Shown here: positions 124-2,124 of the stretch, in pieces
How positions within the stretch are numbered: position 1 is the stretch's first letter
How the letters are laid out: every line of letters starts with the position of its first letter
IMG/VR virus record: IMGVR_UViG_2663762849_000001
Origin: a virus
Lineage: Monodnaviria > Loebvirae > Hofneiviricota > Faserviricetes > Tubulavirales
DNA length: 9,380 bases
Reading direction: 5' to 3' (one strand)
Position numbers and translations under genes: made by a program
The notes under the pieces: model-generated
What the model was told of the DNA's origin: nothing
The model's database searches: none
Seen by the model: the letters and a program-made list of their open reading frames with translations, nothing else

Positions 124-2124
124 ATGACCGAATCAGCCATCCTTACAGCGTATAACGCCATCGACGCGGCATCCGTTGCCCTTGGTCGTCCCTGCCTGAC
201 GCTGCCCGAACGCGAGCATTTTCGGACTGAGCGCGATGTTGCCACCCGCAACCTTTCCACGCTTTCCCGCCAGTATCGTGATGAGGTCGGGACCTTATCT
301 TCACAGCTCGCATTGCCGCGTAACACGCAGGTTGACCGTGTGATTTACGGAATTAACTGCACGGATTTATCTCTCGCTGACAGGGGAAGGGCTGCCGGAC
401 TGGTATCACAGTTTGGCTCGTTTTCGTTCACCGTAGCGCATGCGTTCTGCCGTCTGGTTTACCAGCTTGGTGTGAAAAATGCGCTGATGGCCCTTGAGTC
501 CGCTCACCGTTTTGCTTTCTTCAATCAGGACGGAGACCCTTATGAATTCTCGCTTTTCTGCACTGATGAGCAGATTGCTGAGGTGGCTGATTCGGTTGTT
601 CGTGACTGCCTTGTTTCTCGGGCCATTTATAGTGATGTACCAGAGCATCACCTTCTCAATGTGATGGCCTATTTTCAGGCCATCTCCGGCTTTGATTTCG
701 CCCCCGTTTATGCCACTTATCATGATCGTTACGGCGATGAGGGATTGCTTAAGCGTCTGACTGATTTGGCTTTTGTCACCCGTTTCCTGCGGGTTTTCCG
801 TGACCAGCGGGTCAATGAGGTCTGTCGCATGCTCGGCATACTGAACCGCAACGCGCCTTATATTTCTGACTGGCATCGTGACCTGTTTGCTGTCCGCAGT
901 AAACGCGTGAAAAAGTATCTCCGGTCCTCCGGCGTCTTTGATGCCTTTAATGAGCTGGTCTGTACGCTGGAAGATGCGCATAACGCCTCAGTCTCGAATC
1001 CGAAAAACCGGATTGCTGAACTCTGCGTTCGTGGAAAGGCCGTCTGTGAACTGTCCGAAGATATGGGGCTGTCCGGTTACTTCATCGTGCTCACCACGCC
1101 GTCACGTTTTCACCCGACGACCAGTTTTAATGTTGCCGGAAAATGGCATTCTCGTCCGAATAAAAAATGGTGGGAAGCAGGTTGCCCGACCGTTAAGGAT
1201 TCGCACGCCTGGCTGAATACCGTCTGGCGTCGGGTCTGCCGCAGACTGGATAAAGCCGGTATTCAGATACCCGGCCTGCGTACGGTCGAGCCTCATGCTG
1301 ACGGTACAACGCACTGGAATTTCCTGATTTACTGCAATCCCCATGAGAGCGCAACGGTGCTGGCCATTTTCCGTGAAGAGGCCATGCGCGATGAGCCGGA
1401 TGAAAAGGGGGCGAAAGAGCACCGTATTTGTATTGAGGCTATTGACCCTGAAAAGGGTGATGGTTTCCGTTACATCGTGAAGTACATCACCAAAATGGCG
1501 GGTGATGTCAGTGCGGATGGTATTACCGCCCTGAATGACCGTTATTCTGCCCGTTCATTCTGTGATGCCGTCAGCCGTGCCGCCTGCTGGCAGAAAGCAA
1601 CGCGCCTTCGCCTGTTCCAGTTCTTTGGCGTTCCGTCCGTCACGGCTTACCGCCAGATGCGTACTTTTCGTTCACCGCTTGAAGCACATCATATCAATAT
1701 GCAGCAGTTCACGCCGCAGCAGGTCGCCGAACTGGAGGCCATCCGCATGGCCTGTGATGCAGGCGATTTCCGGACCTATATCCTGCTGAACGGCGGTTTC
1801 TTCTGTTCTGAACGTCTGCTTCGTCCGTTTTACGTTCAGCCGCAGGAAGGTGGTAAGCCCCGTATTAACCGTTACGGTGAACCCTGCGCACCGGTGATTT
1901 CCGGTTTCATGTTTGGCCCCGTTCCGGTCATAACCCGTTTTATGGGCTGCGTTGTCCGCCGTATGACCCCCGCAGAAAAAATCCGCGCAGATGAAATCAG
2001 AAACGGCAGCTCATTTGAATCTCTGTTTCTTTCGTCGGCTTCACGCCACCGCACGACGCGCTCCCGCGCGGCGGGTGGGGGCGGCGGAGCCGACCCTTGG
2101 ACTTGTGACAATAACTGTCCCTGA
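124..2124 (+). CDS. Rolling-circle replication initiation protein (gene II-like Rep), 666 aa, with a long N-terminal extension
   Basis: Longest ORF and first in the operon. Contains motif I-like FIVLTTPS (nt ~1081-1104), motif II-like THWNFLIY (nt ~1309-1332) and a double-tyrosine motif YIVKYITK (nt 1471-1494) matching the Y-x-x-K-Y-x-x-K pattern of phiX174 gpA-type HUH endonucleases. In-frame TGA at 103-105 limits the start to ATG 124. Confidence 0.8.

Follow-up and report, generated by a model that had tools for sequence, protein, structure and literature searches.

A P2 gene-A-family replication initiator with a predicted origin in the 3′ end of its own gene in a filamentous prophage of Escherichia coli

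Introduction

Which type of protein initiates replication of a filamentous prophage of Escherichia coli, and at which site of the genome it would act, are the questions raised by a stretch of 9,380 nt (IMG/VR virus record IMGVR_UViG_2663762849_000001, Tubulavirales; this whole stretch is called the window below), which at 124-2124 encodes a predicted replication initiator of 666 amino acids (aa), here termed Rep. A first model-made reading of the letters without database searches, the sequence-only reading, had described Rep as an unusually large initiator with a phiX-type double tyrosine, an N-terminal extension of about 300 aa and a Gly-rich end. The comparative analysis reported here makes it highly probable that the gene encodes a P2 gene-A-family (two-tyrosine HUH-type) initiator of a dif-integrated E. 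coli inovirus-type prophage, which is of normal size, has its origin in the 3′ end of its own gene and possesses a tail that is the encoded origin.

Family assignment of Rep

The open reading frame (ORF) starts with ATG on the plus strand, and the in-frame stop codon upstream is not followed by an earlier start. Its assignment as a 666-aa initiator is confirmed far beyond chance, as the Pfam profile Phage_GPA (PF05840) matches Rep aa 207-457 along profile positions 73-316 of 321 (E 3.8e-48; 164.6 bits with a cut-off of 31.4), and aa 123-666 are matched by PHROG 91 ('nicking at origin of replication'; E 1.2e-127); Pfam and PHROG thus both place the ORF in a Rep family and in no non-Rep family. 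A phmmer comparison with the A protein of phage P2 (E 1.5e-40) aligns Y450 and Y454 of Rep with Y450 and Y454 of P2 A, and with hhalign Rep aa 204-616 correspond to P2 A 206-605 (E 4.7e-67, 390 columns) and Rep aa 92-619 to residues 98-612 of VFJ, one of the VFJ/fs2-type Reps of Vibrio and Photobacterium (E 2.1e-86). As the core shared with P2 A starts at 206 and 204 respectively, the front regions of both proteins comprise about 200 aa and place the core at the same offset.

Size does not set Rep apart either. The related GPA proteins PM2 P12, 186 A, VFJ Rep and P2 A consist of 634, 694, 698 and 758 aa and the A proteins of E. coli P2-like prophages of 829-842 aa, and within this range of 634-842 aa a protein of 666 aa is average; Rep appeared unusually large because it had been compared with the wrong family. 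The M13 pII protein did not match the family profile significantly, the Pfam scan of Rep was without a pII/CRI match, and the REP_ORF2-G2P catalytic-domain model remained below threshold (E 0.018, 15.8 bits with a cut-off of 27.8). When the phiX174 A protein was compared with Rep by phmmer and hmmsearch, motif 3 alone aligned, with a negative bit score, so that the term 'phiX-type double tyrosine' is adequate for the motif, but not for the protein, which is P2-A-type. No match was retrieved by a PDB sequence search with Rep, by NCBIfam models or by Pfam with the isolated N-terminal and C-terminal parts, and Foldseek against PDB gave nothing significant, with only weak hits to the HUH domains of AAV Rep and parvovirus NS1. 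Judged by sequence similarity, Rep is an ordinary, average-sized member of the P2 gene-A family and not of the Ff pII or CTX RstA family.

The protein is already named by annotation pipelines, with its 666 aa typical of the GPA family. An identical ORF is called "replication endonuclease" in RefSeq entries of E. coli prophages and chromosomes, 40 out of the 5,426 complete E. coli genomes harbour the rep gene, with nucleotide identities of 80-98%, and the 90% protein cluster of the 666-aa Rep counts 2,063 member sequences.

Catalytic core

The three motifs recognized in the sequence-only reading, FIVLTTPS (aa 320-327), THWNF (aa 396-400) and YIVKYITK (aa 450-457, with Y450/Y454), are all present (Table 1). 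Across 59 sequences T324, P326 and S327 of motif 1, E389, P390, H391, D393 and H397 of motif 2 and Y450, Y454 and K457 of motif 3 are invariant, and W398 is nearly so; the E-P-H-x-D-G-x-x-H-W block of the GPA family is found at aa 389-398, and motif 3 aligns with YIAKY at 450-454 of P2 A. FIVLTTPS and YIVKYITK were accepted as instances of the family motifs hydrophobic-T-hydrophobic-T-x-P-S and Y-x-x-K-Y-x-x-K, respectively. These tyrosines 450 and 454 of P2 A are the active-site residues, and site-specific nicking with covalent attachment to a 5′-phosphotyrosine is established only for this protein, according to the statements on P2 A in PMC3986222, which for the tyrosines cites Odegrip and Haggard-Ljungquist (2001). 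The region behind the motifs had been considered a C-terminal part of about 200 aa ending in Gly-rich sequence; the low-complexity Gly-rich tail does exist, but is restricted to aa ~617-666, since the conserved core reaches to aa ~616.

The literal H-U-H signature is, on the other hand, altered in Rep to H397-W398-N399, and PHHDG has likewise become PHADG, without its second His. All 37 proteins of the enterobacterial clade carry HWN, as do the 10 rep copies that correspond to them in the fetched loci, the window among these, and 59 other proteins have HWH or HHH; the enterobacterial clade, in which N399 is invariant, spans 40-98% identity and E. coli, Salmonella, Providencia, Morganella and Xenorhabdus. 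Core codons 204-616 are under strong purifying selection among close relatives (pN/pS 0.07-0.10). Circoviruses and nanoviruses possess functional HUQ variants, which equally lack the second His (PMC7468197). Because of this selection and the functional HUQ variants elsewhere, we read HWN as a working variant, by analogy, rather than as decay, and Rep is kept in the HUH family since membership rests on overall homology and HUQ proteins are functional.

Predicted replication origin

The most informative part of the gene is its 3′ end, where the 24-nt sequence CCTTGGACTTGTGACAATAACTGT, unique in the window with 0 occurrences expected by chance, differs from the P2 and from the 186 sites at 5 of 24 positions each. 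In the GenBank entry of 186, rep_origin is annotated within the A gene, at the equivalent G of …ctctcgg|agttctgtcaataactgt, and the P2 sequence at the equivalent site is gcctcggagtcctgtcaataactgt; the exact cleavage position in P2 is taken over from this 186 annotation. At the protein level an alignment of five proteins lines up the Rep tail with AP(S/R)RS.VNNC of 186 A and P2 A and with APWSTENNC of PM2. That the P2 origin lies inside gene A is stated in PMC3986222 with reference to Liu and Haggard-Ljungquist (1994).

To define the distribution of this nick block, rep and 600 nt downstream were searched in 80 loci fetched from reference genomes (81 with the rep stop located), accepting up to 6 mismatches. 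The block is present in 79 of 81 loci, in 64 of them with at most 3 mismatches, with 1 other match in 2.67 million positions on both strands. Information content amounts to ~2 bits per column within the block, third codon positions included, and falls to ~0 directly outside. In 35 loci the block is inside the coding sequence in frame 0; in 20 it is read in frame 1 and overlaps the stop codon, the TAA or TGA of the motif itself being the stop (…LDL* in Salmonella); in 10 it is read in frame 2, 5 of these inside the coding sequence, which gives 25 loci with a block overlapping the stop in frames 1 and 2 together; and in 14 loci (Xenorhabdus, several Vibrio and others) it lies 3-200 nt beyond the stop. 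As the block occurs in all reading frames and even beyond the stop, the comparison of sequences shows that the constraint is on the DNA and not on the peptide. At least 120 IMG/VR contigs contain an exact 23-mer of the motif, each a single time; in 95 of them it is preceded by GPA Rep motifs encoded on the same strand, and its distance from the YxxxY motif is almost constant (median 625 nt). In two of the 81 loci, L009 (Xenorhabdus hominickii) and L075 (Marinobacter xiaoshiensis), the nick motif was not found within rep and 600 nt downstream, the best candidates having 9 mismatches to the 24-mer of the window and 8 and 10, respectively, in the loci-wide search; these may be decayed copies, or their origin may be located further off.

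Directly 5′ of the nick motif the DNA can fold into a hairpin (2034-2094), which as single-stranded DNA (ssDNA) reaches -30.7 kcal/mol (z -4.4; 0 of 200 shuffles as stable). The 62 nt 5′ of the block in the 79 loci fold with a mean of -13.6 kcal/mol versus -6.4 and -6.7 kcal/mol in upstream control windows (p ~1e-10), and the stems of these hairpins differ in sequence between lineages. Nick motif and rep are on the same strand, as required for a plus-strand nick in an inovirus. Motif and hairpin together are predicted, from these sequence features, to constitute the plus-strand origin, which would occupy the final ~90 nt of rep.

Two related phages are worth mentioning in this context. In PM2 (L005, AF155037) the nick motif CCTTGGAGCACTGAAAATAACTGT is located at 2779-2802 and read in frame 0 as APWSTENNC; the 'cleavage site' of the GenBank record, 1525/1526, is situated in the 5′ part of gene XII, ~1250 nt before this motif, and may be misplaced, as the motif itself is close to the 3′ end of the gene like those of all other family members. 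In VFJ (L004) a perfect 27-bp hairpin (~2020-2101 region) is followed by CCTTGGACTCGTGTCACTAACTGT at 2078-2101, the TAA of which is the stop codon of orf698; hairpin and motif are likely the plus-strand origin of this phage, the published description of which does not mention an origin.

C-terminal tail and N-terminal region

The predicted origin provides an explanation for the Gly-rich tail. Tail residues aa 630-666 are predicted to be disordered (pLDDT < 50), and in homologues the tail is absent, read in another frame or replaced; pN/pS of codons 617-636 is relaxed or elevated, at few sites. Since both arms of the window hairpin encode Gly-rich tail residues, the tail is most likely the translation of hairpin and nick motif without a protein function of its own, and the C-terminal ends of the homologues vary because the nick block falls into different frames or beyond the stop.

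The N-terminal region is partitioned differently than assumed in the sequence-only reading. Instead of ~300 aa, the part without a match amounts to ~200 aa with respect to P2 A, with homology from aa 204, or to ~91 aa with respect to the VFJ-type Reps, with homology from aa 92. Aa 1-91 were aligned by hhalign neither to VFJ-type nor to P2-type Reps, and an exhaustive sequence search with aa 1-203 gave matches confined to the enterobacterial Rep clade, in which (E. coli, Salmonella, Morganella, Providencia, Xenorhabdus; 40-86% identity) Rep is well conserved from ~aa 60 onward; by these alignments, only aa ~1-91 are specific to this clade. Two proteins of ~2860 aa, P0156 and P0164, which are eukaryote-like with ~110-aa tandem repeats, were rejected as homologues of the N-terminus, as their E values with aa 4-64 (2e-36 and 1e-4) arise by summation over 31 and 7 weak repeated matches, respectively. 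Structure prediction models aa 1-91 as helices with high confidence (pLDDT 93-98). Compared with close relatives, pN/pS is 0.10-0.29 for aa 1-91 (0.12-0.29 for codons 1-72) and 0.04-0.12 for codons 92-203. This purifying selection on the front codons indicates that the front region is a selected protein and that the annotated start is used; a true start further inside the gene is thereby contradicted. Our best guess is that the helical N-terminal ~200 aa represent the variable front module of the family, which might recognize the lineage-specific origin (hairpin or duplex) or recruit a host factor.

Table 1. Features of rep and of the predicted origin; positions refer to the window
Feature	Position	Strand	Description
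rep gene	124..2124	+	666 aa; P2 gene-A family rolling-circle replication initiator (Phage_GPA, PF05840)
aa 1-91	124..396	+	clade-specific helical segment; long helical hairpin H2-20/H27-55 and short helices
aa 92-203	397..732	+	helical; common to VFJ/fs2 inovirus-type GPA Reps, not detectably to P2/186 A
aa 204-616	733..1971	+	family-wide conserved core; HUH-type nuclease domain and C-terminal domain
Motif 1, FIVLTTPS, aa 320-327	1081..1104	+	aligns with FYTLTAPS of P2/186/PM2/VFJ
Motif 2, aa 389-399	1288..1320	+	metal-binding HUH block, second His replaced by Asn
Motif 3, YIVKYITK, aa 450-457	1471..1494	+	catalytic tyrosine pair Y450/Y454
aa 630-666	2011..2121	+	disordered low-complexity tail, most likely by-product of translating the origin
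GC-rich imperfect hairpin	2034..2094	+	predicted origin element directly 5′ of the nick motif
Nick motif CCTTGGACTTGTGACAATAACTGT	2095..2118	+	predicted plus-strand origin; nick predicted G2100^A2101

Alternative explanations

The impression of a large initiator would also be accounted for if a pII/RstA-like or phiX-like protein had acquired an additional N-terminal domain of ~300 aa with an origin-binding, regulatory or host-interaction function, and indeed Rep is longer than M13 pII (410 aa), and its aa 1-203 are without a Pfam match and restricted to one clade in sequence search. Such an acquisition is scarcely credible, however, with no similarity to pII and a resemblance to phiX A in motif 3 only, with lengths of 634-758 aa and a similar offset of the core in P2 A, 186 A, PM2 P12 and VFJ Rep, and with aa 92-203 homologous to VFJ-type Reps; relative to these proteins, their size, the offset of the core and the latter homology imply that nothing has been added. 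A catalytically dead Rep, which would leave the prophage defective or dependent on another initiator, is suggested by the H-W-N and PHADG in place of PHHDG…HWH, with the second His of HUH missing, and by the nature of the window as a chromosomal prophage instead of an isolated phage. It is nevertheless very unlikely in view of the invariance of N399 across a clade of 40-98% identity, the low pN/pS of the core (0.07-0.10), the intact tyrosines, E389, H391, D393 and H397, the retained origin motif and hairpin, the tandem prophage copies typical of active dif-integrating inoviruses (PMC4266046) and the activity of HUQ Reps in other families (PMC7468197).

Conservation of the C-terminal block could also reflect a functional peptide (…PW[TS]C.NNC, for example a Cys-containing metal or interaction motif), with the conservation of the DNA being secondary. 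While the reading in frame 0, seen in 35 loci as well as P2, 186 and PM2, with the resulting PW/PR-S-x-x-NNC peptide would be in line with this, the block is in frame 1, in frame 2 or 3-200 nt past the stop in 44 of 79 loci, shows a nucleotide conservation of ~2 bits per column that extends to third positions and breaks off abruptly at its edges, and belongs to a tail predicted to be disordered, which makes a selected peptide most improbable. An internal in-frame start giving a C-terminal fragment had been considered in the sequence-only reading. A second product of this kind, resembling pX or A* and needed to control replication, would have its precedent in the internal starts used by Ff and phiX174 (M13 and phiX174 annotations). 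Three internal in-frame starts of rep, codons 73, 236 and 542, are preceded by a Shine-Dalgarno-like sequence; the best of them, M542 (ATG at 1747), is preceded by GGAGG with a spacing of 8, its predicted product being 125 aa long, and a 125-aa 'uncharacterised protein' (P0102) is on record in the 90% cluster. Yet position 542 is V, E, F, L, S or A in most homologues, GGAGG derives from conserved E-L-E-A codons, P0102 is possibly a gene call on truncated contigs, and no such product is annotated in the P2 or 186 A records; with its best candidate not conserved, an internal start thus lacks comparative support and is considered unlikely. The reading of Rep as an active, ordinary GPA initiator, the gene of which harbours the origin, is therefore retained in the following.

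Proposed mechanism and implications

By homology with P2 A, Rep would recognize an origin situated within the terminal ~90 nt of rep itself, consisting of the lineage-specific hairpin 2034-2094 followed by CCTTGG^ACTTGTGACAATAACTGT at 2095-2118, and would cut the plus (viral, coding) strand between G2100 and A2101. Through Y450 or Y454 the protein would join covalently to the 5′ end, with the 3′-OH set free for the host polymerase; after one round the second tyrosine would cut the regenerated origin and the single strand would be re-ligated to a circle, to be coated and exported through pI/pIV. The metal site would be formed by the EPH.D…HW block, with Asn399 replacing the second His in analogy to the HUQ Reps. 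P2 A acts preferentially in cis, and the placement of the predicted origin within the final 90 nt of rep fits such a preference.

Extending this to the family, GPA initiators might be modular, with a core that reads the near-invariant 24-nt motif and a fast-evolving N-terminal module (aa 1-203) that reads the fast-evolving hairpin and sets specificity, with an H-U-N metal site in the enterobacterial clade and with the origin overprinted on the rep 3′ end, where it provides the tail peptide or even the stop codon, to enforce cis-action, a tentative scheme which we regard as possible, but doubtful as a whole. To our knowledge, an H-U-N metal site has not been described for Y2 initiators, and the fixed change from HUH to HUN can be considered a natural experiment on the metal-site needs of two-tyrosine HUH enzymes.

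New in this work are the origin prediction, the explanation of the tail, the partition of the protein (1-91, 92-203, 204-616) and the clade-wide change from HUH to HUN. Besides the corrected family for the initiator of filamentous prophages widespread in E. coli, Salmonella, Providencia and Xenorhabdus, a plus-strand origin is predicted with base precision (hairpin 2034-2094, nick 2100^2101), which is useful for the construction of replicons and phagemids from such phages and for their recognition in genomes. The 24-nt motif, occurring once per element with essentially no background, is a very specific DNA marker of GPA-type rolling-circle elements.

Genomic context of the prophage

Downstream of rep the window encodes, on the same strand, an inovirus-type gene set with a 141-aa ORF in the place of gene V, major coat protein (PHROG 1646), pIII-like protein (Phage_Coat_A), pVI-like protein (PHROG 1944), Zot/pI (Zot, PHROG 1675) and pIV secretin (Secretin, PHROG 1012), as assigned by Pfam and PHROG. 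At its right end the switch from phage to host lies inside a dif-like site at 9217-9244, …GTGCGCATAATGT|ATATTATGTTAAAT (AGTGCGCATAATGT|ATATTATGTTAAAT), which we take to match E. coli dif. In E. coli AST205 and 100416 the prophage unit occurs in tandem copies beside hipBA, and the sequence left of the 9217-9244 junction is identical to the tandem-copy junction in these strains; the right side (9232-9380) diverges and is presumably host DNA. As the phage-to-host switch is within the dif-like site, the window therefore represents the right-hand prophage copy of an inovirus integrated at dif, with ~136-150 nt of host DNA, ending in attR. Tandem copies are typical of active dif-integrating inoviruses (PMC4266046). 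A link to CUS-1/YpfPhi, the dif-integrating inoviruses of Enterobacteriaceae described there, was considered, but not established, with no Yersinia or named CUS-1 proteins among the homologues or the five nearest 90% clusters, and the whole window found no match among the INPHARED phages by megablast. Calling inoviruses among the related loci by tblastn with three pI/Zot queries was too insensitive (6 of 80 flagged) and was not used.

The 141-aa ORF directly after rep (2155-2580) matches PHROG 30648, of unknown function, end to end (E 1e-95), with a sub-threshold G5P-like hint (E 0.081); it is larger than the ssDNA-binding protein of VFJ (104 aa) and the M13 gene V protein (coding sequence 843-1106, ~87 aa). 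The pIII-like protein (ORF 3207-4571) has a long Gly/Ser linker encoded at 3824-4075 by 39/78-bp tandem DNA repeats, with 93% matches at the 78-bp period, and RefSeq relatives of 1356 versus 1398 nt, which differ at the linker, suggest that the repeat number varies.

Between the pI/Zot and pIV genes a unit of 339 bp is repeated 5.2 times in tandem at 98% identity (6164-7915), with a GC content of ~58-60% versus ~45-52% in the adjoining genes. Related prophages harbour 0 to ~2 copies at this place, and the full unit is found in only 9 complete E. coli genomes, in up to 29 places in one of them. Its first ~65 nt (CCGCTCGCCGCAGACCCAGCGACCGAACG.AGTGAGCGAGTGGTCGAGGAAGCGGAAAGG) recur at 304 places in plasmids, small ColE1-like ones included, at a distance of ~290-350 nt past the stop codon of rop. 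Near this region, ColE1 plasmids have a PriA-dependent ssiA/n′-pas site (PMC3167613), and by analogy the 339-bp unit could be a candidate minus-strand origin of the primosome-assembly type. Rfam detected no family in the window at gathering thresholds, the 339-bp repeat included, and the ssDNA fold of the whole unit was no more stable than shuffles.

Comparison with known systems

Among the classical filamentous phages, pII of Ff (M13/f1/fd) and RstA of CTX-phi resemble Rep as initiators that nick the plus strand and are encoded at the start of the replication module, but they are unrelated in sequence; the Ff origin is intergenic, and Ff pX derives from an internal start. The A protein of phiX174 (Microviridae) shares with Rep the two-tyrosine motif 3 (YVAKYVNK versus YIVKYITK), HUH-type chemistry and an origin within the initiator gene (rep_origin 4306), yet has 513 aa, another nick sequence and the internal product A*. 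P12 of the Corticovirus PM2, a GPA initiator of 634 aa, is homologous over aa 180-592 and has the nick block in frame 0, although PM2 is a membrane-containing dsDNA phage and its GenBank 'cleavage site' is located in the 5′ part of the gene.

The A proteins of P2 and 186 have the same motif order, tyrosines at identical positions (450/454), a similar size and homology over Rep aa 204-616, and in P2 the nick sequence is equally found in the 3′ part of rep on the coding strand (CCTCGGAGTCCTGTCAATAACTGT versus CCTTGGACTTGTGACAATAACTGT in the window). On the other hand, these are tailed dsDNA phages of 33 kb, whereas the element of the window is a filamentous ssDNA prophage of ~9 kb; the first ~200 aa of P2 and 186 A are not detectably similar to Rep, and PHHDG..HWH stands against PHADG..HWN. 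While the rep gene ends 6 nt past the nick motif, P2 and 186 A continue for ~75-130 codons, and the imperfect stem of ~25 bp before the nick in the window contrasts with stems of 5-7 bp in P2 and 186.

The Rep of VFJ and fs2 (orf698/orf716; Inoviridae, Saetivirus) is an inovirus GPA Rep of similar size (698 aa), homologous over Rep aa 92-619 and matched by tblastn with 29.5% identity over aa 43-606, at an overall identity of only ~28%. Although VFJ differs in that both histidines are kept (H-N-H), the motif is in frame 1 and aa 1-91 are not alignable, the organization of VFJ/fs2 resembles that of the window, with rep followed by a gene for an ssDNA-binding protein (a putative one in the window) and the coat genes, and with the nick motif placed at the end of rep after a long hairpin.

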